Positions 610 through 55,684 of a stretch of DNA of 64,000 bases are shown in pieces. The stretch is from Parcubacteria group bacterium Gr01-1014_3 (GTDB lineage: Bacteria > Patescibacteriota > Minisyncoccia > UBA6257 > WO2-44-18), in contig VMGF01000003.1 of assembly GCA_007376445.1 (NCBI GenBank), forward strand, positions 31,024-95,023, read 5' to 3'. Each line of letters begins with the position of its first letter. Position 1 is the first letter of the stretch. The translations under genes and the position numbers were made by a program. The notes beneath the pieces are model-generated. The model saw only the letters and a list, made by a program, of their open reading frames with translations. It ran no database searches and had not been told where the DNA came from.

Positions 610-680
610 TGCGGGATCGTCTAATGGTAGGACGTCGCTCTCTGAAAGCGAAAATTTTGGTTCGATTCCAAGTCCCGCAG
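610..680 (+). tRNA. tRNA-Gln (anticodon CTG)
   Basis: Manual cloverleaf: acceptor TGCGGGA/TCCCGCA, D-arm GTCTAATGGTAGGAC, anticodon loop CTCTGAA, T-arm TTTGG-TTCGATT-CCAAG, discriminator G. Confidence 0.7.
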
Positions 681-738
681 CATATAGAGTTGGCTTAGCG
701 AGGAACGAGCTTAGCAACTCTTATGCCCCGCCATAGGC

Positions 739-1011
739 GTGGGCAAAAAAACTATGTACTATGTCTATATTCTTGAGTGCCAGGATAAAACGCTTTACAC
801 CGGAATTACTACCGATATCCAACGCCGTTTCAAAGAGCATAGTCTGGGAATAGGAAGCGCGTACACCAGGGCCAAAAAAGTAAATAAAGTTTTATATACC
901 GAGCAATTTAAAACAAGAAGCGAAGCTCAAAAGCGTGAAGCCGAAATCAAAAGCTGGCGCCGCGATAAAAAAATAAAATTAATAAAAAAGACCCGCAAGG
1001 TTTTACCTTGA
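739..1011 (+). CDS. GIY-YIG nuclease superfamily protein (UPF0213/YhbQ-like)
   Basis: YVYILECQDKTLYTGITTDIQRRFKEH is a classic GIY-YIG N-terminal motif. Confidence 0.8.
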   Translation: MGKKTMYYVYILECQDKTLYTGITTDIQRRFKEHSLGIGSAYTRAKKVNKVLYTEQFKTRSEAQKREAEIKSWRRDKKIKLIKKTRKVLP

Positions 1012-1026
1012 ACGGGTCTTCGTGAT

Positions 1027-1296
1027 TCAAACAGAATCCACGCACTGGCGGCAGTAAGCCGATCTGGGTTCGTCTGGGGCGAGTGCGTTGCCACAGTGAC
1101 TGCAAAATCTGTCAGCTGCGGGTTCCGGCAGTTTCGTCTTCGGCGGCTCTTCCACCTCGACTTTCACCTGCGGTGGATCATCCGCCGTGCAGTAGCTAGG
1201 ACACCAACCCTCGCCGTCCAACTCGCCACCACACCGGCTACAGTGCGTCGCGATCCATTCAACATATCCTGGTTTCGCCACGGGGCCTCCTTTCAA
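1027..1296 (-). CDS. hypothetical double zinc-ribbon protein (CxxC...CxxC x2)
   Basis: CSRCGG...CPSYC and CSHCGN...CRQC cysteine pairs. Confidence 0.4.
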   Translation of the reverse strand: MKGGPVAKPGYVEWIATHCSRCGGELDGEGWCPSYCTADDPPQVKVEVEEPPKTKLPEPAADRFCSHCGNALAPDEPRSAYCRQCVDSV

Positions 1297-1340
1297 TTCT
1301 TGGAATATTATAACTTATTTTTTAGCAACAGTCAATTCTA

Positions 1341-1376
1341 TCCCCCCCCACTTTCTCCTTCCAAACTGCTTAAGAG
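1341..1376. repeat. degenerate duplicate of the 3' coding end of the DEAD-box helicase gene (direct repeat partner of 1775..1808)
   Basis: The reverse complement reads KQFGRRKWGG, against KQFGRRKWGR* at the real helicase C-terminus; about 28 of 33 nt identical. Confidence 0.6.
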
Positions 1377-1393
1377 CATTATATAATTCAATA

Positions 1394-1738
1394 ATGTCAG
1401 AAACATTTAATCCACAATCTCAAGAGCGCCCTCCTGAAGACCCCTTGAAAAAAGAGCGGATAGAAAACGTGACCAAAGCACTTACTGAGGCTGAGGCAAT
1501 TTTTGAAGCCGAGGGCAGAGAGAAGGCAAAGTCACTTTTGCCGAGAATTTACGATGATTTAATTGTGTTAAACAAAAGAAGCAAAGAAGAGTGGGAAACT
1601 GTCTGGGTTTGGAATTCAGACGGAGATTTGACTGAAGAAGAATTTAACTCCCTGGATCATCGTAGAAGGCTATTATCCAATGCTATTGGTATTCTGACAG
1701 CATCGGGCGAAATCAGGCACGATCTAAACAAAATTTAA
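1394..1738 (+). CDS. hypothetical acidic protein lying between the two helicase-3'-end repeats
   Basis: ORF; TATATAAT -10-like box just upstream; rho-independent terminator just downstream. Confidence 0.5.
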   Translation: MSETFNPQSQERPPEDPLKKERIENVTKALTEAEAIFEAEGREKAKSLLPRIYDDLIVLNKRSKEEWETVWVWNSDGDLTEEEFNSLDHRRRLLSNAIGILTASGEIRHDLNKI

Positions 1739-1741
1739 AAT

Positions 1742-1774
1742 AAAAAAGACCCGATAGCTACCGGGTCTTTTTTA
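1742..1774. terminator. bidirectional rho-independent terminator (GACCCG...CGGGTC with A-run and T-run)
   Basis: Hairpin plus flanking A and T tracts between convergent genes. Confidence 0.7.
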
Positions 1775-3109
1775 TCTCCCCCACTTCCTTCTTCCAAACT
1801 GCTTGCTTGGGCCGGAAAAACCACTCGGGCGAGAAGATGGGCGTCCACCGCCAAAACCTGGGCGGGGTGCTTGCCCGCCGTGGCGGGGACCACCAAAGCC
1901 TGGCCTGCGACCAAAACCGGGACGGCTACCAAAACCTGGCCGACCACCTTCAAAGGCTGGCCGAGCTAACCTAACCGGCGCGCGATGCGGCGGAAGCTGT
2001 GGAACTTTAGAAAGCGGCAAAGCGCCACGCATCAGACGCTCGATATCCCGGACATCACCCTTCTGATTCGGCTCGGCAAAAGAAATAGCGTGACCCTCTT
2101 CACCGGCCCGGCCTGTGCGGCCAATGCGATGGATATAATCCTCGGCGCTTTGCGGAAGATCAAAGTTAATGACCAGCTCGATGCCTTTTACATCAATACC
2201 GCGAGCGGCGATATCCGTGGCCACCAGAATCCGATAACGTCCATTTTTAAAACCCTCCAAGGCATCCCGGCGCTGGCCAAGAGAACGATTAGAATGCAGC
2301 TCTGCTACCGTGTACCCAAAGGTACGAACTGACACGGTGATCTTTTTGGCGCCATATTTTGTGCGAGTGAACACCAAGACTGAACCTTTATATTCGCCCA
2401 ATAATTTTTCTAAAAGACGGACTTTGTCCATTTTTTCCAAAAAGAAAAGCTCGTGAGTAACTTTAGCCGCGGCGGTGCCTTGCGGAGCTACTTCCACGCG
2501 AAGTGGCAACCTCATCACCGATTTTGCCATCGATACGATACTTTCCGGCATCGTCGCGGAGAAAAGCATGGTCTGTCGCTCACGCGGTACCACGGCAAGA
2601 ATACGATTTAATTGCGGCGCGAAACCCATGTCCAACATTCTATCCGCTTCATCCAATACCAAGACCTCCACACCAGAAAGCGAGACGGTCCTTTGCTGAA
2701 TATGATCCACGATCCTGCCCGGAGTGCCGATGATAATGTTCGGATTTTTCTTTAGCATGCTCATTTGACGGCTCATTGAGTCGCCACCGATCACGATCAC
2801 GGATTTCAAACCAAGCGGGCCGGCGATCTTTTCAAAAGTTTCATGAACTTGATAAGCCAATTCCCTAGTAGGCAAAACTACCAAGCCCAACTTGCCTTTA
2901 AGCGCGGCCTGGATCATCGGGATACCAAAAGCGAGCGTCTTACCGGTGCCGGTCTGCGCGATACCCATCAAATCCTTGCCCTCCAAGGCAGACGGAATAC
3001 ACCTCTCCTGAATCGGTGTTGGGGTCGTAAAATTGAGCTTATCTAGCAACGCTAAGATATTGGGAGCGATGCCTAATTTGTAAAAACCGGAAGATTCATT
3101 CACGCCCAT
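1772..3109 (-). CDS. DEAD-box ATP-dependent RNA helicase with C-terminal Gly/Arg-rich (RPGFG) tail
   Basis: AQTGTGKT (motif I), PTRELA, VLDEADRMLDMGF (DEAD), SAT, HRIGRTGR motifs. Confidence 0.9.
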   Translation of the reverse strand: MGVNESSGFYKLGIAPNILALLDKLNFTTPTPIQERCIPSALEGKDLMGIAQTGTGKTLAFGIPMIQAALKGKLGLVVLPTRELAYQVHETFEKIAGPLGLKSVIVIGGDSMSRQMSMLKKNPNIIIGTPGRIVDHIQQRTVSLSGVEVLVLDEADRMLDMGFAPQLNRILAVVPRERQTMLFSATMPESIVSMAKSVMRLPLRVEVAPQGTAAAKVTHELFFLEKMDKVRLLEKLLGEYKGSVLVFTRTKYGAKKITVSVRTFGYTVAELHSNRSLGQRRDALEGFKNGRYRILVATDIAARGIDVKGIELVINFDLPQSAEDYIHRIGRTGRAGEEGHAISFAEPNQKGDVRDIERLMRGALPLSKVPQLPPHRAPVRLARPAFEGGRPGFGSRPGFGRRPGFGGPRHGGQAPRPGFGGGRPSSRPSGFSGPSKQFGRRKWGR

Positions 3110-3631: not shown

Positions 3632-5171
3632 TCTTAAAAGCTGGGGCGTGCCTTTCCTGGCCCTGCTGGCGATAATCGCTTTTTTCCAGTTCGTCTCACC
3701 CAATATCCCCGAATCCGACAGCTTCTACTATATGGGCCTCGGCGCTCTTTATAGCGAACAGGGTATTTTCAACGTGGATTTCCCTTGGATCTTCCACTCC
3801 ACCATCCACACATTCTCTTCCTCGCTCTGGTGGGGGTTTGGAGTGGTGATGCTCCCTTTTTCCCTGCTACCGGACCAATTGCTAGCGATTAAAATTGCCG
3901 GCCTGATCTTCGGTTCGCTGGCGCTTTACGCCTACTATTATGTATCGCGGCGAGAAGATTTAGTGATGCCGCTTTTCTGGCCATTTCTGCTTTTCTTTTC
4001 GGCTCCCAATATCCTCTCCCGCTTCCTGATGGTGCGCCCGCAGATCATCTCCTTGCCGCTGAGCTTTTTATTGTTCTCCGGCCTGCTTAATAATCAATCC
4101 TGGCTGGTTTTCCTCGCTTCTTTTGGCATTGCCTGGTTCCATCTTAACTTTGCCTGGGTGCCGATAATGCTTTTGGTAATCGTGATGACGGCAAAATTAT
4201 TTTTCGAGAAATCTTTTAACTGGAAACCGGCTATGGCCGTGCTGAGCGGCGTACTTTTGGGCTGGGTCGCCCGCCCACAATTCTGGAACGCGGCCAATCT
4301 TTTTTATATCCAGATCTTCCAGCAAATCTTTGAGAAGCAGGGTGGCCTACCGCTTCTTTTTGGCAAAGAAAACCTCCCCCTCCCAGCCTCGATTCTATTC
4401 GGCAATTTTCTTATTATCCTAATCCTTTGGCTTGCCGTGATCGGCGTTGCCGCCTGGATGAGTTCGCGTTCCAGCCGATTTCAGTTGGGAGCCAAAGAAA
4501 AGATAACTCTTTGGACCAGTATAGCGATCTCCTCGATCTTCTTTTTGCTTTCTATTGTAGTGGCGCGCCGAGCCTATGATTTCTGGGTCGCTTTTGGCGT
4601 GCTCGCCATCGCCATGGCCTATTCGATTATTGTCCGGAACTCCACTCACCTACGTCTCCAATCGCTCGCTAACAATCTTATGATCGGCCTTTGGGCCGCG
4701 CTGGTTTTCCTGGCCTTATTCTCGGGTATTAAAATAATCGACGCCCTGAAACAAAGTTACGCGCCAAATGAACTCCAGGAAGTCTCCCTCTGGCTCAAGA
4801 GCAACTCCAAGCCAGGCGAGATCGTTTTTAATCTTCACTGGGCCGACTTCTCGCCGCTCTTTTTCTGGAATCGGAATAATTATTATGTTGGTGGCCTGGA
4901 TCCGATCTTCCAGTACTCCTATGACCCAAGTCTTTACTGGAAATTCCACTATCTTTCTACTGACCAAGTTACCAAAAAAACCTGCGGTGCTATCGAATGC
5001 ACCTCGGATCAACTCGTGGATACCTACGGTGTTTTGAAAAATGATTTTAACGCGAAATATGTCGTGCTGACTAAAAAAGAAAATCCAGCGGTCTTCCAAT
5101 ACCTCTCCTCTGACTCGCATTATGTAAAAAGTTTTGAGACTGAGAAGGAGGCGGTGTTTTTTATTAAATAA
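3624..5171 (+). CDS. polytopic integral membrane protein, possibly GT-C fold glycosyltransferase (PMT/ArnT-like)
   Basis: More than 10 predicted TM helices with a C-terminal soluble domain; family assignment tentative. Confidence 0.4.
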   Translation: MISLKSWGVPFLALLAIIAFFQFVSPNIPESDSFYYMGLGALYSEQGIFNVDFPWIFHSTIHTFSSSLWWGFGVVMLPFSLLPDQLLAIKIAGLIFGSLALYAYYYVSRREDLVMPLFWPFLLFFSAPNILSRFLMVRPQIISLPLSFLLFSGLLNNQSWLVFLASFGIAWFHLNFAWVPIMLLVIVMTAKLFFEKSFNWKPAMAVLSGVLLGWVARPQFWNAANLFYIQIFQQIFEKQGGLPLLFGKENLPLPASILFGNFLIILILWLAVIGVAAWMSSRSSRFQLGAKEKITLWTSIAISSIFFLLSIVVARRAYDFWVAFGVLAIAMAYSIIVRNSTHLRLQSLANNLMIGLWAALVFLALFSGIKIIDALKQSYAPNELQEVSLWLKSNSKPGEIVFNLHWADFSPLFFWNRNNYYVGGLDPIFQYSYDPSLYWKFHYLSTDQVTKKTCGAIECTSDQLVDTYGVLKNDFNAKYVVLTKKENPAVFQYLSSDSHYVKSFETEKEAVFFIK

Positions 5172-9927: not shown

Positions 9928-9934
9928 TTTGACG

Positions 9935-9966
9935 TTATATTATAACATTTCCCGAGTTTTTCCAAA
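9935..9966 (-). promoter_or_regulatory. sigma70-like promoter for tRNA-Thr copy 1 (TTGGAA -35, extended TGTTATAAT -10); duplicated at 10236-10280
   Basis: Minus strand reads TTGGAAaaactcgggaaatgtTATAAT 8 nt before the tRNA 5' end. Confidence 0.55.
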
Positions 9967-10075
9967 GAAAATAAGAGCAGGTGACGAGAATCGTCCGGTC
10001 ATACGACCGGACAGCCCAGTCGGATGACTGGGCGAACTCACGTCTCTACTTTACCCCGCACCTTTTCTCGATTAG

Positions 10076-10147
10076 AGCCAGAGAGAGGAGTCGAACCTCC
10101 AACCCCTCCCTTACGAAGGGATTGCTCTGCCATTGAGCTACTCTGGC
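10076..10147 (-). tRNA. tRNA-Thr-like (anticodon CGT), copy 2, flanked by 35-bp inverted repeats
   Basis: GCCAGAG..GCTCAATGGCAGAGC..loop TTCGTAA..GGAGGTTCGACTCCTCT..CTCTGGC; 27-43 mismatch. Confidence 0.6.
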
Positions 10148-10181
10148 AAATTTTATACGTGATCGAGAAAAGGTGCGGGGT

Positions 10182-10218
10182 TTACGAAAGTAGTGTTCTA
10201 CCACTGAACTATATCGGC
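10182..10218 (-). pseudogene. tRNA 5'-half fragment (acceptor, D-arm, anticodon stem-loop CTACT-TTCGTAA), no 3' half
   Basis: GCCGATATAGTTCAGTGGTAGAACACTACTTTCGTAAA then runs into inverted-repeat sequence; no complementary 3' acceptor nearby. Confidence 0.45.
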
Positions 10219-10284
10219 GTCTCTCTTTATTTAAATACTAGGTCATATTATAACATTTTGCGGATTTTTTCAAAGAAAATAATG

Positions 10285-21875: not shown

Positions 21876-22796
21876 TCACTGCCTTACTAACTTTAAAACT
21901 CCGCCGCTCCAACTCGAACCCATCGTCCCCTTCTCCAGGGTAGTGAAGATCTGCGCCCCCGCGGATTTGAGACGAGCGAGCGCTGCCGGCGTGGGGTGGC
22001 CGTAAGTATTTTTGCCAACTTCGATGATCGCGGCCTTCGGTTTTACCGCGGCTAAAAATTCCGCGCCGCTGGAAAATCGAGAACCGTGATGCCCGACCTT
22101 CAAAATATCCGCCGATAGATCGTATCTTTTCATCAACTCGTTTTCGACATTAAAGCCAATATCTGCCGTAAATAAGATCTTGAAGTTCTTGTCGCGAAGC
22201 ATAGTCACCAAGCTGGTGTCGTTTAGCTCGCTACTTAATAGATCACCGCTATTCGGAGAAAGAATGCCTAAGGCCGTATCCTCGTGAATTATCCGATCTT
22301 CCTCCGCTAATTGAATATACGGAACGCCCCGATTCTGAAGCTCGTTGATTAGAGTCTGATAAGCTCCGGCAGTGCCTTTTCTGCCATTCCCAATAAACGC
22401 TCCGACTTCATAATTTTTCAGCACATCAATAAACCCTCCGAAGTGGTCTAACTGGGGATGGGTCATCAAAAGCATATCGATATACCGGTCCTGGGGCGGT
22501 AAGACTTTGGCCAGCGCCGTTAACACTTTGCCATCCGGATTCCCAGCATCGATCAATAACTTCGGGCCACCAGGAAAAATAATCAGCTGGCTATCCCCTT
22601 GCCCGACATCCAGAAAATAAATTCTGGCACTATCACGCGTGATAGTGCTTGCTTGGATAATCTGATACCAGACAATTCCGTCCAGCAATAATAACGCCGC
22701 TACAATATATAAAACCCAGTTAGACTTTTTTGCTTTGGAATTTTTGTTCAGCATAATAGACAAGTCCAATAAGCGCGGCCCAATAAAGCACGCCAT
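21876..22796 (-). CDS. comEC: ComEC C-terminal metallo-beta-lactamase domain protein (split from N-terminal part)
   Basis: HxHxDH-type MBL motifs (HPQLDH, HHGSR); likely starts at internal Met near 22754. Confidence 0.7.
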   Translation of the reverse strand: MACFIGPRLLDLSIMLNKNSKAKKSNWVLYIVAALLLLDGIVWYQIIQASTITRDSARIYFLDVGQGDSQLIIFPGGPKLLIDAGNPDGKVLTALAKVLPPQDRYIDMLLMTHPQLDHFGGFIDVLKNYEVGAFIGNGRKGTAGAYQTLINELQNRGVPYIQLAEEDRIIHEDTALGILSPNSGDLLSSELNDTSLVTMLRDKNFKILFTADIGFNVENELMKRYDLSADILKVGHHGSRFSSGAEFLAAVKPKAAIIEVGKNTYGHPTPAALARLKSAGAQIFTTLEKGTMGSSWSGGVLKLVRQ

Positions 22797-24153
22797 AGAA
22801 CCAATTAAAGTTCACTACTTCGAATACTCCGCCTAGCTTAGAAAACCAGTCGATGACCGTCAACTCGTAAGTAAGGAGTATGCTGACCAGCCAAGCTAAC
22901 GCCTGCGCCAACCAGCCAGAGATCACGGCCGCGAAAGCCACCATAAATCCAAAAAACATCGTGAGCGGTATGGCGGAAAGTAAAAGCATATTGGTCAACA
23001 AACCCATCGCGGAAACTGTGCCGAATGAACTTAATAAAATCGGGAGCACGGCCAGCTGCGCGGAAAGGGTGGCAAAAAGATTCTGCCGCCAGTTCAGGAT
23101 TCCCGGCTCCTCTTTCGCGCGGACAAGCTTTCGTAATGCCGGAGCCAGATAAACGATTCCTAAAAGCGCAGCGAAGGAAAGCTGGAAGCCAATATCCCAC
23201 ACCAACACTCTCGGATTCGCGAGCACCATCAGGAGCGCGGCAAGCGCGAGAGCGTTCCGGAAATTGTGGATCCGCCCGATCTGGTTCGCGAGTAAAAGCA
23301 AAGAAGCCATGATCGCCGCCCGCACCACCGAGGCTTCGGCTCCCGTCATCACCACGAAGCCAAGAATGATCACCACGGTCAGGACGAAAAACGTCCGCCG
23401 CGAGACCCGGCCCGCTAGAGCTAGGCCAATAGCGTCAATAATAATCGCCACGTTGTACCCGGAGAGCGCGACTAAATGAGAAGTGCCAGTCAAACTCAAC
23501 TTTTCCCGGAATTCTTTGGTGAAGCCGGAGGTATCGCCCAGAATTAACCCGGAAAGAAAAGCGGCCCGCTCTGGCGAGAGGACTTTATAAAATGAATCCC
23601 GCACAAAATCCCGTATCGAAAACAATCCCCGCTTCAGCCAAAAACCTTCATTCTCCCCGGTTGGCGTAATTTTCGGATTCCGCATTCGCGCCACAATGCC
23701 ATTTTTCAGATAGGAATTTTTATATTCCTCCGGAATCTCTTCTACCTTGCCATCAATTTTCAAAACATCGCCATATTTATATGCCGGGTATTTCGAGGTG
23801 AATATTTTAAGCCTGCCGTTATATGACTCGCGAATCGCCATAATTAACTCCTGACTCTCCATTCCCTGCTCGGCTTTGGCCACAAACCCGGTCAGTTCCG
23901 CCTTTTGTCCGACCGGTAAATTACTGGACAGGCGGAACTGGTCGACGATGACAACATGACCATAACCAATGACCAGAAAAATGCTTAATGCCGCCATCCA
24001 ATAACGTCCCAGAAGTAAAAACAGCGCGCCCAGTAAAAGCGTGATTCCGATAATTATCCAGAACCTACTTCCCCATTCTTGAAACACGCTTGCCAGAAAT
24101 ACCCCAATCAAAAATAAGCTGGAGGAATAGAAAAATATAGAGCCGGGTTTCAT
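22720..24153 (-). CDS. comEC: ComEC N-terminal part (DUF4131 + competence/Rec2 membrane domain)
   Basis: Polytopic membrane domain typical of ComEC; overlaps the downstream MBL ORF in a different frame. Confidence 0.7.
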   Translation of the reverse strand: MKPGSIFFYSSSLFLIGVFLASVFQEWGSRFWIIIGITLLLGALFLLLGRYWMAALSIFLVIGYGHVVIVDQFRLSSNLPVGQKAELTGFVAKAEQGMESQELIMAIRESYNGRLKIFTSKYPAYKYGDVLKIDGKVEEIPEEYKNSYLKNGIVARMRNPKITPTGENEGFWLKRGLFSIRDFVRDSFYKVLSPERAAFLSGLILGDTSGFTKEFREKLSLTGTSHLVALSGYNVAIIIDAIGLALAGRVSRRTFFVLTVVIILGFVVMTGAEASVVRAAIMASLLLLANQIGRIHNFRNALALAALLMVLANPRVLVWDIGFQLSFAALLGIVYLAPALRKLVRAKEEPGILNWRQNLFATLSAQLAVLPILLSSFGTVSAMGLLTNMLLLSAIPLTMFFGFMVAFAAVISGWLAQALAWLVSILLTYELTVIDWFSKLGGVFEVVNFNWFYGVLYWAALIGLVYYAEQKFQSKKV

Positions 24154-54100: not shown

Positions 54101-54310
54101 GTTCAAAAAATAGTAACCCGCCTCGGCCAACCGATGGTCTTCGTGAAGGTGGAAGATATGAATACCACGCTGGAAGTCGTCGTCTTCTCCGACACGCTCG
54201 CGAAAAACCCCGACATCTGGCAAGAAAATAAGATCTTAGTCATCAATGGCAAAATGTCCTGGCGCAACGGCGAGCAGAAACTCATCTGCAATAGCGCGAC
54301 TGAAGTATAA
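51149..54310 (+). CDS. dnaE: DNA polymerase III alpha subunit (short form)
   Basis: PHP domain HTHSHYSLLDG, polymerase core, OB-fold; start placed at ATG. Confidence 0.9.
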   Translation: MPRFTHLHTHSHYSLLDGLTQINDLVKRAKELGMDSLAVTDHGNLYGAIEFYKAAKAAGIKPILGVEAYIMPNTNGNSTTTERYYHLIILCKNLTGWKNLLKLITHANLEGFYYKPRINKDFLRKHSEGLIALSACLAGEVSRAIMANKMPEAEKIALEYQDIFGAGNFYLEVGHHPGIKETIKAGAGLIEISKKTGIPLAATQDIHYLKKEDAKYHDILLAVQTGNKLNDPDRLTLKDDDFSMRSPEEMASFFTHIPEAIENTAKIADMCNIELELGKIQLPKFAVPVDKSAQDYLKQLIEERTSKRYAVLNEVVQQRISYELSVVEKMGFADYFLIVQDFINWAKDRGIVVGPGRGSAAGSIVAYILGITDVDPIKYELLFERFLNPDRIQMPDIDIDIADHRRGEVLAYLTQKYGDDRVAHIITFGTMAARASIRDVGRALDISLAFCDQLAKLIPFNQDLDEALKSTSELATLYRTNPDAQRIIDAAKKLEGVARHASMHACGIVISNEPLINQLPLQRAPQDENSILTQFEMHTVEDLGLLKMDLLGLKNLTIIENALVLIKENHGVDLDIHKLPEWDAKTEKLLQAADTTGVFQFESSGMRRYMKEIKPSELEDLIALVALYRPGPMDLIPDYIQVKHGLKQVKYLHPKLEPILKTTYGVGIYQEQMMRIARDLAGFTLAEADTLRKAIGKKIKELLDKQEEKLIKGMLANGIEPATAKAIWELFPPFARYGFNRSHAACYALIGYQTAYLKANYPVELMTAVLNADSGDTDRISFLITECQKMGIQILPPDINKSSARFTPEDKNIRFGLAAIKNVGENIVKLLIEERQRGGPFPDLVSLLQRVQNRDLNKKSLESLAKCGVFDSLNIERNQIVANLEDIVKFSSLVKKTGQSTQMGLFGNTISSKSLKLAPAAAAGTQERLLWEKELLGLYLSDHPLNSYKEKFRSAGIRDIKDVMTSANPATPNTMYKIGGLVSKVQKIVTRLGQPMVFVKVEDMNTTLEVVVFSDTLAKNPDIWQENKILVINGKMSWRNGEQKLICNSATEV

Positions 54311-54347
54311 AAAAGCACCCATTTCTGGGTGCTTGCTAGTCACTATT

Positions 54348-54917
54348 CTAGTATTCCGCTCTTGCCTTGTCCTGAGCTGGCGGAAGAGGCTTCCCTTGAA
54401 TCGGTTCGGCCTTTTCTCTCAACTTCCGCTTCATTTCGCGAAGCGCGAGAAGCTGAACCACATCAACACGACCGATGGTCTTAATCAAATCATAAGTCTC
54501 TTGGTCAAGGTGAATGTAACGAACATCCTCCCCTTGACCAACATAAACACGAAGAACTCGCTTCTTATCCCATGCGTATGTCGCACTCACTCTCGCGTTC
54601 ACATAGCTCACGAGCTGTTCGTCGGTAAGCGTTGGTCCCTGTGCCGCCTCATCGGCTAGCCGATGAGGCTTGATGCAGTCCTCATCATAGGCCTGATAAA
54701 TGGCAAGTCCCAGCCCTGAAACTACAACAGCAATAATGAGTATTGGCACCAATGACGCAAGAAGCTTCATTGAAAAAATCCTCTTAAAAATACTCGGCCG
54801 GCGAAGCTTCACAAGCTCCGCCTCTTGCTCTCCGTTCTTCGCCTTAAGTCCCTCAATCAAATGCTCGCACTCCTCCATCGTCATACCTTGATCGCCGACC
54901 TCTACATCATCAGACAT
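54348..54917 (-). CDS. hypothetical membrane-anchored protein carried on the dnaE 3'-end insertion
   Basis: ORF with single TM. Confidence 0.4.
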   Translation of the reverse strand: MSDDVEVGDQGMTMEECEHLIEGLKAKNGEQEAELVKLRRPSIFKRIFSMKLLASLVPILIIAVVVSGLGLAIYQAYDEDCIKPHRLADEAAQGPTLTDEQLVSYVNARVSATYAWDKKRVLRVYVGQGEDVRYIHLDQETYDLIKTIGRVDVVQLLALREMKRKLREKAEPIQGKPLPPAQDKARAEY

Positions 54918-55015
54918 TTGCCGCCTCCTTGCCCCGCCATCGGCGTGGGCTGAAAAAAGGTTGTAAACTAACTGCTGGATATGTTAACCAATTTCCTTGA
55001 ATTTGTCAAATCATC

Positions 55016-55047
55016 CCACCCCACTATCACATGTGATAGTGGGGTGG
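55016..55047. promoter_or_regulatory. 32-bp perfect palindrome CCACCCCACTATCACATGTGATAGTGGGGTGG overlapping the promoter (TATAAT at 55048-55053) of the HTH gene
   Basis: Palindrome immediately followed by TATAAT and an 11-nt leader. Confidence 0.7.
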
Positions 55048-55064
55048 TATAATATTCATTACTT

Positions 55065-55544
55065 ATGATAATCAACAATAAAAAGCTGATTGGTAAATCA
55101 GCAGAAGATTGGACCGAGAAACTTTGGCTAAAGTTAATAGAAAAAGTTAGTCAAACAAATAATGAAGAGGCCACGAGAAAACTGATTGAGCACCTACTTA
55201 GCGCTGATGAGAAAAAGATGATCGCAAAAAGACTCGGTGTTATTGCGCTAATAAAATCTGACAAGTCTTATAAAGAAATCAGTGAAATTCTATGGTTGTC
55301 CCCCAATACCATCAGCACGATCAAAAAGAACATTTTAGGAAATGATGGAAATTATAAGAGTTATCGTAAATTTTATGGCGGGCCGAAAAAATGGAGCGCG
55401 GATATAAAATACGAAAAACCTTTTTGGGAAGACTTCAATCTATTAGAATTTATTGACGATTTGCTTCCGAGATATAGGGGTATAGGACTATTGAGCTCGC
55501 CGGACGTTGCCGCGAATCATACATATCGCAGAAGGCGAAAATAA
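55065..55544 (+). CDS. helix-turn-helix DNA-binding protein (sigma region-4 / TrpR-YerC-like HTH), probable regulator binding the flanking palindromes
   Basis: LSADEKKMIAKRLGVIALIKSDKSYKEISEILWLSPNTISTIKKNI HTH. Confidence 0.5.
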   Translation: MIINNKKLIGKSAEDWTEKLWLKLIEKVSQTNNEEATRKLIEHLLSADEKKMIAKRLGVIALIKSDKSYKEISEILWLSPNTISTIKKNILGNDGNYKSYRKFYGGPKKWSADIKYEKPFWEDFNLLEFIDDLLPRYRGIGLLSSPDVAANHTYRRRRK

Positions 55545-55557
55545 GGCCTCAATCAAT

Positions 55558-55585
55558 CAGCCACTATCACATGTGATAGTGGCTG
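55558..55585. promoter_or_regulatory. 28-bp perfect palindrome CAGCCACTATCACATGTGATAGTGGCTG downstream of the HTH gene
   Basis: Third copy of the palindrome family. Confidence 0.7.
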
Positions 55586-55592
55586 GAAAATA

Positions 55593-55671
55593 AAGTCCTG
55601 GTCGTAAGCGGGAAAATGAGCTGGCGTAACGGCGAACAGAAACTCATCTGTAATAGCGCGGTGGAAATATA
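55593..55671 (+). pseudogene. duplicated 3' end of dnaE (encodes KVLVVSGKMSWRNGEQKLICNSAVEI*), direct-repeat partner of 54231-54310, with its own terminator at 55668-55700
   Basis: About 85% nucleotide identity to the real dnaE 3' end. Confidence 0.65.
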
Positions 55672-55684
55672 AATGCTCCGGTAA

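Follow-up and report, generated by a model that had tools for sequence, protein, structure and literature searches.

The analysed window, a stretch of 64,000 nucleotides, contains an intact gene for a RhlE-like DEAD-box RNA helicase on the minus strand, and the encoded protein is 100% identical to TSC88832.1 of Parcubacteria group bacterium Gr01-1014_3. Read in the direction of the helicase, the gene is followed by a terminator, an antiparallel gene for a 114-aa protein, a relic of the helicase 3' end and the gene for a small double zinc-ribbon protein (ZR), beyond which lie a second terminator (T1), a GIY-YIG gene and a tRNA-Gln gene (Table 1). The helicase stop codon sits in the outer arm of the 36-nt palindrome, while the inner arm is part of the 114-aa block, and the ZR promoter begins 3 nt past the TAG of the relic. 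The 114-aa gene is the sole ORF between the two helicase repeats, and Rfam matches within the window were to tRNAs only.

Table 1. Coordinates of the features at the helicase and dnaE loci, as positions within the window.
Feature	Position	Strand	Remarks
tRNA-Gln(CTG)	610–681	+	Conserved anchor to the right of the variable region; 98.6% identity with L168
GIY-YIG gene	754–1011	+	Catalytic domain only, 85–90 aa; Pfam GIY-YIG 3.5e-20
Terminator T1	986–1021		Common to ZR and the GIY-YIG gene
ZR, small double zinc-ribbon protein	1027–1281	-	84 aa; weak zinc-ribbon Pfam matches; adjoins helicase in L177
ZR promoter	1307–1335	-	TTGACT, 17 nt, TATAAT; consensus 11/12; orthologous in L177 and L168
Relic of helicase 3' end	1338–1371	-	34 nt, one additional G, own TAG; fused to ZR promoter like the empty site
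Upstream stub of cargo gene, right-hand insert junction	1372–1393	+	Homology to L168 923–945 begins exactly at 1372
Cargo gene, acidic helical protein	1394–1738	+	114 aa; function unknown
Near-perfect palindrome, bidirectional intrinsic terminator	1740–1775		36 nt; inverted repeat 18+18 nt, 94% complementary, no spacer; terminator-scan match
Active helicase 3' end block	1772–1804	-	Last 10 codons and TAA; 27-nt core identical to L177 end
DEAD-box RNA helicase gene (RhlE-like)	1772–3109	-	445 aa, intact; Pfam DEAD 2.6e-51, Helicase_C 2.1e-29
dnaE active 3' end	54218–54310	+	Last 30 codons and stop
dnaE cargo region	54311–55579		Terminator and two genes
dnaE cargo gene	54348–54917	-	189 aa
dnaE cargo gene, TrpR-like	55065–55544	+	159 aa; 22-nt palindrome flanks
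Relic of dnaE 3' end	55580–55673	+	Frame open; differs from active end at 20 nt but only 6 aa

A repeat search detected a 27-nt direct repeat (1345–1371 and 1778–1804, spacing 433) in which 25 of the 27 positions match (93%), and with one indel allowed this lengthens to 33–34 bases, which span the final ten codons of the helicase with their stop codon. Read on the minus strand, its active end (1804 to 1772) is AAGCAGTTTGGAAGAAGGAAGTGGGGGAGATAA, encoding KQFGRRKWGR*, and the second copy (1371 to 1338) reads AAGCAGTTTGGAAGGAGAAAGTGGGGGGGGATAG. The two arginine codons are AGA AGG in the active end and AGG AGA in the copy, a synonymous exchange, and both base differences within the 27-nt core are silent; the further differences are one extra G in a run of Gs, one A>G change and a TAG in place of the TAA. 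Owing to the extra G the copy reads KQFGRRKWGG and continues through a further eight codons (IELTVAKK*), and has thus ceased to be a proper gene end. The preliminary description, made from the sequence alone, had both copies encode KQFGRRKWG on the minus strand; these residues are present in each, but the relic reads on past them. The repeat blocks it quoted are real, except that the upstream block has eight Cs rather than seven and the strings ran 1–2 nt past their coordinates.

In ungapped local alignment the helicase repeat scores 22, about 12 SD over chance: 2000 Markov resamples of the 3.5 kb lying downstream gave 9.3 ± 1.05 and at most 17. Resampling the tail instead led to the same result, with 0 of 2000 cases reaching 22. 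Together with the 25/27 alignment this upholds the proposed duplication of the helicase 3' end. When 74 crude window genes were scanned for a downstream copy of their last 120 nt, dnaE (43) was the only case besides the helicase (22), with all others scoring 15 or less, and no relics of 5' ends were detected upstream of genes in the window (maximum score 13.5). The same arrangement of the helicase locus is present in three independent assemblies (the window, L172 from Logan and L173 from ENA), which excludes an assembly artefact.

In L177, the closest relative found, ZR with its promoter comes directly after the helicase stop and there is a single copy of the gene end (...AAGCAGTTTGGAAGAAGGAAGTGGGGGAGGTAG joined to AGTTGACA...TATAAT...GTG of ZR). 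This is an uninterrupted, empty site, and the window must therefore have gained 400 bases together with a copy of the gene end, as had been claimed for the helicase 3' end before any relatives were compared. ZR is thus the original downstream neighbour of the helicase, and the relic stands where, at the orthologous position, L177 has its real gene end. The helicase tails of the two genomes are 86.5% identical and the dS of ZR is 0.19. The relic is ~7% diverged from the active copy and is young, with two of 27 bases changed and one indel, compared with dS values of 0.19 (L177) and 0.83 (L168, the sister lineage). Its AGGAGA allele is exactly that of the active L168 gene. The arginine codons, the extra G and the AGA/AGG and TAG/TAA states were dropped as phylogenetic markers, as A and G flip back and forth across five copies and are homoplastic. 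A sliding three-way identity comparison (window, L168 and L170) gave no recombination breakpoint within the helicase; the nearest relative was constant except in the last ~25 nt, where the switch is not usable as breakpoint evidence because there are too few sites.

The sister lineage L168 retains the order helicase, ZR slot, terminator and 114-aa gene (antiparallel), with the 114-aa orthologue lying ~0.35 kb away on the far side of the ZR-type slot and its orientation to the helicase unchanged. The spot it holds there is occupied in the window by the GIY-YIG gene. Homology between window positions 1372–1753 and L168 positions 923–1306 includes the left arm of the terminator, and in L168 it is the equivalent of T1 that comes after the 114-aa gene; within the window itself, AATAAAAAAGACCCG is common to 1739–1753 and the T1 region (983–997) at 15 of 15 positions. 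Both the L168 position and this 15/15 match are predicted by a local duplication and not by a foreign-element model. The helicase end of L168 holds a different cassette: a 115-aa gene separates the active end from a degenerate relic, which is joined to the same ZR promoter. On its left, the L168 relic begins at only roughly the same place (−24 to −31, versus −33 in the window). That this gene end was hit independently in L168 suggests a hot spot or a degree of site preference. In a further relative (L170) the corresponding slot at the helicase end contains a 103-aa gene, and a GIY-YIG remnant adjoins the tRNAs. A possible third helicase-end relic in L168 (1425–1443) was not significant, its score of 11.5 equalling the 95th percentile of the null, and an apparent promoter duplication there (73% over 70 nt) is probably the relic plus consensus promoter hexamers and was not relied on.

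The 114-aa cargo, a real gene, possesses a −10 box (TATAAT at 1382–1387, 6 nt ahead of the ATG at 1394) and a palindromic terminator of its own, so the promoter-like box, the acidic gene between the repeats and the bidirectional terminator of the preliminary description were all recovered. It lacks a Shine-Dalgarno sequence and its transcript is probably leaderless. The protein is acidic (pI 4.9, 24 D+E versus 17 K+R) and is conserved in Parcubacteria-type metagenomes. Between the window and L168 the gene has a dN/dS of 0.19 and a dS of 0.82, the adjacent helicase having a dS of 0.83. Because its dS equals that of the helicase and an orthologue is located near ZR in the sister lineage, the helicase cargo is resident and vertically inherited, not foreign. 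Seven other genomes carry 114-aa homologues in unrelated contexts without helicase-end flanks, and no flanking repeats bracketed these homologues, the one candidate pair (L081, 4016/4927) being two tandem paralogous M14 peptidase genes. Mobile-element families of PHROG and Pfam were not found among the cargo proteins, and a phage origin was rejected, as the 114-aa family and the TrpR-like protein of the dnaE insert had no relatives in IMG/VR.

The dnaE locus shares the architecture of the helicase locus, as the preliminary description had proposed, but not its history. Its repeat (54218–54311 and 55580–55673) is 94 nt long, 79% identical and spaced by 1362. The two dnaE ends, with a dN/dS of 0.10 and a dS of ~1.4, are old and diverged as functional coding sequence under purifying selection, hence one of them was imported from another lineage. 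In-situ duplication at dnaE was accordingly rejected, as the two copies cannot have begun identical. The junction shows a microhomology of 4–5 nt (TGGC). Close relatives of dnaE were absent from the protein collection (best 59–62% identity), and neither an empty site nor a sister arrangement was found. The helicase scar, which is young and holds local cargo, and the dnaE scar, which is old and involves an import, have no common history.

Scars of the same type occur sporadically in other genomes (L168, L081 and L166), those of L081 and L166 having emerged from a scan of 990 genes. In L081, 72 nt of the end of an HI0933-like gene are found on both sides of a NYN gene, the repeat being bimodal with 40 nt identical and ~32 nt at only ~70%. 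In a distant bacterium (L166), ~75 nt of a helicase end flank a bare 78-aa ORF on both sides. Repeat lengths across the window helicase, L081, L166 and dnaE cases are 33, 72, ~75 and 94 nt.

No integrase, excisionase, or tyrosine or serine recombinase is encoded in the helicase insert (400 nt) or the dnaE insert (1.3 kb), the helicase insert has no transposase, and none of the 10 unassigned ORFs of the 64-kb window belongs to an integrase or transposase family. Terminal inverted repeats were not found between the ends of the helicase insert, and neither window insert has a recombinase, terminal inverted repeats or a phage link in or near it. The earlier proposal of a single dedicated mechanism that inserts cargo at gene 3' ends in this genome is thus not borne out. 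A diversity-generating retroelement (DGR) was also rejected, as there is no reverse transcriptase among the neighbouring ORFs and the repeat differences are A to G in both directions plus an indel, not confined to adenines. Integron attC and IMEX/dif readings were dropped likewise, with no integrase, no dif-like palindrome in the repeat, and the 36-nt palindrome being a plain terminator. Elsewhere in the same genome, a tRNA-Thr gene contains an element with 19-nt TIRs and a TAAA duplication.

On balance, we consider it probable that duplicative, non-site-specific recombination relocated the resident cassette and left the scar at 1338–1371, which looks like an ordinary recombination scar and not the product of a new cargo-inserting machine. 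The ancestral order would have been as in the relatives: helicase, ZR promoter and ZR, terminator, 114-aa gene (antiparallel) and tRNA-Gln. We infer the molecular route, which may have been duplication with loss or unequal recombination. In the former, a segmental duplication (tandem or by template switch) would have extended from 33 nt before the helicase stop to just upstream of the 114-aa −10 box, and the redundant copies would then have been lost; in the latter, unequal, illegitimate recombination would have occurred with DNA of a very close relative entering by the competence channel. ComEC is present among the window ORFs (PF03772, 1.1e-47), which makes DNA uptake from relatives plausible. 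By both routes the helicase and ZR would come to be separated by the 114-aa cassette (−10 box, leaderless ORF and terminator). Of the two gene ends, the upstream one would be in frame and take a new TAA from the palindromic terminator of the cassette, leaving the helicase unharmed, the downstream copy would remain joined to the ZR promoter and decay, and the old cassette site beside tRNA-Gln would be the one that now holds the small GIY-YIG gene. Such an event would be tolerated because the upstream copy keeps the helicase gene whole, and the bias towards 3' ends may likewise reflect survivorship, with events tolerated only where the upstream copy completes the gene, making dedicated machinery unnecessary.

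Gene order classically changes by tandem duplication with random loss, a process known above all from the mitochondrial genomes of animals. As in that process, neighbours at the helicase locus have swapped order with orientation kept and no gene disrupted, and a 5'-truncated helicase fragment at the junction is followed by the original ZR promoter as in L177; unlike in that process, there are no pseudogene remnants and one lost copy is replaced by the GIY-YIG gene. Neither a ZR fragment at 1740–1775 nor a 114-aa fragment in 682–1011 was found, only the terminator stem being duplicated, and duplication plus loss would therefore need two clean deletions. Also against relocation, L168 has an independent insertion behind the same helicase, the loop of 1740–1775 differs from that of T1 and has an A-run that no simple deletion in T1 would yield, and since in-situ duplication is rejected at dnaE, at least one event in this genome used a foreign gene end. 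The synonymous core differences and the L168 allele in the relic would likewise be compatible with two gene ends that were both functional and came from different lineages. A process known from Acinetobacter and Streptococcus pneumoniae, homology-facilitated illegitimate recombination in the course of natural transformation, shares with our cases the anchoring of one end in a conserved gene and the illegitimate joining of the other, which can bring in a donor gene end plus new DNA. It fits the presence of ComEC and the TGGC microhomology at dnaE; however, its usual outcome is a deletion in the recipient and not a duplication, and anchoring at the 79% identity of dnaE would be very inefficient.

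Site-specific integration of the att type, in which the ~30-nt helicase end would be an attachment site for CIME-like cassettes served by a recombinase in trans, is possible but unlikely. Small circular cassettes, running from promoter to terminator, would carry a surrogate gene end and be swapped by a recombinase encoded elsewhere. This would explain direct repeats derived from the target 3' end, an intact 445-aa target ORF, the empty site in L177, the other cassette found behind this gene in L168, whose relic is about as long, and copies that each have their own stop codon and differ synonymously. The bimodal L081 repeat resembles a core with diverged arms, and the dnaE ends show the evolution of functional coding sequence that a surrogate end borne by an element should have. 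A documented parallel is e14, a 15-kb prophage in Escherichia coli icd with its own integrase and SOS-inducible excision, where icd is completed by insert-side sequence, a C-terminal pseudogene (icdC) is left and the differences between the ends are mostly synonymous or conservative (PMC13626634). As with e14 (and phage 21) in icd, the insert lies in the 3' end of a housekeeping gene with the displaced C-terminal fragment as a direct repeat on the far side, and the dnaE pair behaves like icd/icdC (dN/dS 0.10); unlike e14, the window inserts are 0.4 and 1.3 kb and recombinase-free, and the helicase cargo is resident. Integrase-less CIMEs of 1.2–13 kb and gene-free microCIMEs of 130–220 bp are documented too, with CIMEs of the ICESt3 family sitting at the 3' ends of streptococcal fda, rpsI and rpmG and differing in content between strains (PMC7563491). 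Our cases share with these the integrase-less DNA bracketed by direct repeats where a conserved gene ends, and contents that differ between genomes at one site, but CIMEs are defined by descent from an ICE or IME and by att sites of a known integrase, and no such element or integrase is known here. To our knowledge, no conjugative system has been described in CPR bacteria. Against the att reading are also the lack of an integrase or excisionase in either insert or among the unassigned ORFs, a resident cargo whose dS matches the helicase in place of a foreign passenger, and cargo homologues elsewhere without helicase-end flanks. A fixed crossover point is not supported by the differing left edge in L168, and repeat lengths vary widely among cases.

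That the GIY-YIG gene cut this region, with repair leaving a duplicated C-terminal segment, is very improbable. In its favour, such a gene is located at the 114-aa position of L168 and uses the same terminator, a GIY-YIG remnant lies beside the tRNAs of L170, and in fungal mitochondria partial C-terminal duplicates of atp6 and cob are flanked by free-standing GIY-YIG or LAGLIDADG endonuclease ORFs (PMC6279837). The fungal cases resemble ours in the succession of gene, inserted ORF and duplicate C-terminal segment with a GIY-YIG gene nearby, but there the endonuclease ORFs lie inside the repeats, whereas the window GIY-YIG gene is outside them, 330 nt from the relic, with only the 114-aa ORF in between the repeats. 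Its protein is a catalytic domain alone without a DNA-binding domain, and the dnaE, L081 and L166 cases have no endonuclease gene. A transposon-type insertion, with a long target-site duplication from staggered cuts 33 nt apart, is barely credible: the insert is flanked by direct repeats and the genome has at least one TIR/TSD element (19-nt TIRs, TAAA, tRNA-Thr gene), but the helicase insert has neither terminal inverted repeats nor a transposase, and the dnaE copies cannot have started out identical. Target duplications of known transposases are usually 2–15 bp, far exceeded by the 33–94 nt seen here. Chance similarity or an assembly artefact, suggested by a block that is short and CT-rich, is counted as refuted by the 0/2000 resamples, the orthologous position in L177 and the concordance of the three assemblies. 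Lastly, we regard it as quite doubtful that Parcubacteria shuffle minimal cassettes into the last codons of conserved genes, with an unrecognised or trans-acting system regenerating the end. Under such a scheme, the units may consist of an extended −10 box, a leaderless ORF and a hairpin terminator (0.4–1.3 kb), gene 3' ends may act as reusable slots (for the 114-aa gene here, the 115-aa gene in L168 and the 103-aa gene in L170), and the exchange may be integron-like without an integron.

If relocation by ordinary recombination holds, the value of the helicase locus is documentary, as a resolved change of gene order in a streamlined CPR genome in which an essential-type gene stayed undamaged, and for which the empty site, the arrangement in the sister lineage and the age of the scar are all available. 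Its signature is simple, with a gene-end relic directly adjoining the promoter of the following gene, and could be mined to count such events. The contrast between helicase and dnaE indicates that this signature has more than one origin and does not represent one mechanism. If a recombinase in trans does serve the slot, this would point to a cassette-exchange system in bacteria whose mobile elements are poorly known.

The 3′ end of the DEAD-box helicase gene is present twice in the window, which comes from a MAG of the Candidate Phyla Radiation (CPR), “Parcubacteria group bacterium Gr01-1014_3”; the helicase and the 114-aa protein beside it are 100% identical to TSC88832.1 and TSC88831.1 of Gr01-1014_3, respectively. 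The duplication proposed in the preliminary description was borne out, with 25 of 27 bases matching between 1345–1371 and 1778–1804 and a local-alignment score of 22 compared with 9.3 ± 1.05 (maximum 17) in 2000 resamples. With one extra G the repeat reaches 33–34 nt, the last ten codons and the stop; the gene end codes for KQFGRRKWGR and stop, and the second, out-of-use copy (the relic) for KQFGRRKWGG, continuing into IELTVAKK and stop. The arrangement is identical in two further assemblies of the same population (L172, L173). Among 74 crude window genes, only dnaE (score 43) and the helicase had a downstream copy of their own 3′ end, and none had an upstream copy of its own 5′ end.

Features at the helicase 3′ end, in helicase sense (window coordinates)
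Feature	Position	Strand	Remarks
DEAD-box helicase, 445 aa	3109→1772	minus	intact; Pfam DEAD 2.6e-51, Helicase_C 2.1e-29
Palindromic terminator, 36 nt	1775→1740		downstream of helicase
114-aa gene	1394–1738	plus	antiparallel to helicase
Second copy of helicase end (relic)	1371→1338	minus	
Strong promoter, TTGACT-17-TATAAT	1335→1307	minus	ahead of ZR
ZR, 84-aa double zinc-ribbon gene	1281→1027	minus	
Terminator T1	1021→986		beyond ZR
GIY-YIG gene	754–1011	plus	antiparallel to helicase
tRNA-Gln	610–681		

Relatives settle that the helicase 3′ end carries an insertion, as had been proposed. The nearest relative found (L177, a 512-nt contig, GCA_900218045.1) has a helicase tail 86.5% identical to the window (81% in the sister lineage L168, 71% in the more distant locus L170) and a ZR dS of 0.19. 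Its helicase terminates in ...AAGCAGTTTGGAAGAAGGAAGTGGGGGAGGTAG, followed directly by AGTTGACA...TATAAT...GGAGG...GTG, the ZR promoter and gene. As the helicase stop in this empty site is succeeded at once by the ZR promoter, the window contains 433 extra bases, made up of a 400-nt cassette (the 114-aa gene, its −10 box and terminator) and the second gene-end copy. The relic is the copy adjoining the ZR promoter, now disused, and the active helicase stop TAA sits within the outer arm of the cassette’s palindromic terminator. Relic and active end differ by ~7% plus one indel, hence the scar fits an origin near the L177 split (dS 0.19) or later and, judged by these divergences, is far younger than the L168 split (dS 0.83). 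ZR itself has 84 aa and two CxxC pairs in the window (1027–1281), and 55 aa, the first half only, in L177 (324–491), with a terminator directly after it.

The 114-aa cargo is a real gene and is not foreign. Thirty-seven homologues of the protein occur in Parcubacteria-type metagenomes; ten positions are invariant and conservation is strong in the C-terminal half. The protein matched no Pfam or PHROG family and had no relatives in IMG/VR. Structure prediction gives a small bundle of helices (pLDDT 70) whose fold matches are only generic. The −10 box lies 6 nt ahead of the ATG and there is no ribosome-binding site, which suggests that the transcript may be leaderless. In L168, whose helicase shows 97% protein and 84–85% DNA identity to that of the window, the orthologue (74% aa) lies on the far side of the ZR slot, its orientation relative to the helicase unchanged, followed by the terminator that follows the GIY-YIG gene in the window. 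The homologous block (window 1372–1753, L168 923–1306) begins precisely where the insert has its right-hand junction and stops within the terminator. Between the two lineages dS is 0.82 for the 114-aa gene (dN/dS 0.19) and 0.83 for the adjacent helicase; this equality and the position in L168 show that the cargo was inherited vertically in the clade and moved a few hundred bases in the window lineage. Its former place is now occupied by the GIY-YIG gene, whose ORF runs through the T1 left arm and loop (983–1011) before its stop (..KKTRKVLP), which suggests that this gene became attached to a terminator already in place. In more distant genomes the 114-aa family occurs in unrelated neighbourhoods, without flanking repeats.

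The same gene end has been altered elsewhere. In L168 it is followed by a promoter, a 115-aa gene on the helicase strand, a terminator and a degenerate helicase-end fragment (...CAGAAGGAAGTGGGGGGAGATAG) fused to the orthologous ZR promoter, and the ages indicate an independent, older event. Neither ZR nor a relic is present in L170 and L171 (helicase ~91% aa), where the helicase is followed by a 103-aa gene. These differing arrangements mark the helicase 3′ flank as a place of repeated gene turnover. In L168, the same promoter precedes short, unrelated Cys- and Arg-rich ORFs in the ZR slot.

In this clade, coding tails and tRNA genes alike seem to receive small hairpin insertions. L170 has a 32-nt hairpin, AGCCTCGCCCGTGGCCGGTCTACGGCCGAGGG, in frame in the helicase C-terminal tail and again in a tRNA-like gene (2217–2248 and 3632–3663, 97% identical), and, compared with L177 and L168, the window helicase tail also carries an insertion at roughly this position (~1870–1892), a GC-rich palindrome of different sequence, CCCCGCCACGGCGGGG. 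A tRNA-Thr(CGT)-like gene in the window (9975–10245, minus strand) carries within its anticodon loop a 127-nt insert with perfect 19-nt terminal inverted repeats (CCCCGCACCTTTTCTCGAT / ATCGAGAAAAGGTGCGGGG) and TAAA on both sides, and two further hairpins (41 nt) in its T-loop; with all inserts removed, ARAGORN recovers a tRNA-Thr(CGT) with a degenerate acceptor stem. The 127-nt insert contains an intact tRNA-Thr(CGT) (10147→10075), and so brings along a substitute for the gene that it interrupts. A third tRNA-Thr(CGT) (9927→9852) is accompanied by a duplicated 41-nt promoter-like block (9934–9974 and 10242–10282).

The dnaE scar has the architecture of the helicase scar and a different history. 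The last 94 nt of dnaE are repeated 1362 nt downstream, enclosing a terminator, a 189-aa gene and a TrpR-like gene. Between the copies there are 20 nucleotide differences, a TCC/AGC serine switch among them, but only 6 amino-acid differences (dN 0.137, dS 1.42, dN/dS 0.10). When in-situ duplication with a neutrally decaying relic was simulated, ≤6 amino-acid differences, or dN/dS ≤0.10, arose in about 1% of runs or fewer. The dN/dS and the simulations therefore indicate that the two copies acquired most of their differences while functioning as gene ends in separate lineages, one of them having been imported. Both ends have lineage-specific residues (GKMSWRNGEQKLICNSA) absent from the nearest database relatives, pointing to a fairly close relative as donor; no close relatives of the dnaE locus were found. 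The junction, a 4–5 nt overlap (TGGC) with a 26-nt palindrome, is a typical microhomology join. A 22-nt perfect palindrome, CCACTATCACATGTGATAGTGG, occurs in three identical copies (37354–37375, 55021–55042, 55561–55582; none expected by chance), two flanking the TrpR-like gene, one of these forming the junction with the dnaE relic, and the third overlapping the stop of a sigma-70-like gene; possible roles of this palindrome are an operator for the TrpR-like protein or one end of a small mobile unit. A 20-nt GC-rich hairpin, GCCCCGCCATNGGCGTGGGC, has only two window copies (725–744 and 54931–54950; 0.02 expected), just upstream of the GIY-YIG gene and the 189-aa gene.

When 148 helicase loci and the 990 genes of all retrieved loci were put through the gene-end test, two clear further cases emerged besides paralogue pairs. 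The pattern is sporadic and extends beyond this genome. In the Parcubacteria contig L081 (8750–9530), an antiparallel NYN-domain gene lies between two copies, ~700 nt apart, of the final 72 nt of an HI0933-like flavoprotein gene; identity is complete over the 3′-most 40 nt and only ~70% over the ~32 nt before them, with one indel, and the stop codons differ (TAG and TGA). A second assembly (L082) breaks exactly within this repeat. In a distant marine bacterium (L166, 2580–3050; helicase 38–40% identical), ~75 nt of the helicase 3′ end recur 314 nt downstream, and the 78-aa ORF enclosed by them is bare, beginning 6 nt past the helicase stop and having neither promoter nor terminator of its own.

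On balance, the helicase scar probably arose as a junction when duplicative, non-site-specific recombination moved a resident cassette to a new place. A tandem or template-switch duplication could have begun 33 nt ahead of the stop and ended immediately upstream of the cassette, after which the first ZR copy would have been lost and the second 114-aa copy replaced; equally, a single unequal recombination between two close relatives, differently arranged, could have produced it. The window encodes ComEC (PF03772 and a metallo-beta-lactamase domain), making DNA uptake from relatives plausible; its Competence (22720–24153) and metallo-beta-lactamase (21876–22796) domains lie in two overlapping ORFs, reflecting either a frameshift or two genes. 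As local duplication predicts, the inserted gene is the former downstream neighbour in the same orientation, and the original downstream sequence directly follows the relic. Apparent 3′-end targeting needs no special mechanism, since a partial duplicate can be tolerated only where the upstream copy leaves the gene complete. Weak points of relocation are that no remnants of the lost copies were found, that the new terminator’s loop differs, that an independent event affected the same gene end in L168, and that both core differences are synonymous and match L168’s allele.

These same points, the dnaE result and the bimodal L081 repeat leave some room for an att-type model, which we consider doubtful; in it, a recombinase acting in trans would move cassettes that bear a surrogate gene end, much as in CIMEs (PMC7563491) or in e14 at icd (PMC13626634). 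Ten unassigned window ORFs contained no recombinase or transposase families and the remaining ORFs look, in our reading, like housekeeping genes; between the helicase repeats there is no ORF besides the cargo, and the insert ends are not inverted repeats. The GIY-YIG gene, which lies outside the repeats and comprises only the catalytic domain, is unlikely to have played a part like that suggested by fungal mitochondria, where C-terminal duplications are associated with endonucleases (PMC6279837). From the preliminary description, an insertion at the helicase 3′ end and a second case at dnaE stand, but the cargo is resident and the histories differ; the recurring insertion mechanism it proposed is not supported, no machinery having been found and the dnaE scar being of different history. 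The helicase scar is a further instance of a scar type already known. It seems quite improbable that it is the trace of a system exchanging cassettes in CPR bacteria, which, if true, would be considerably more interesting.
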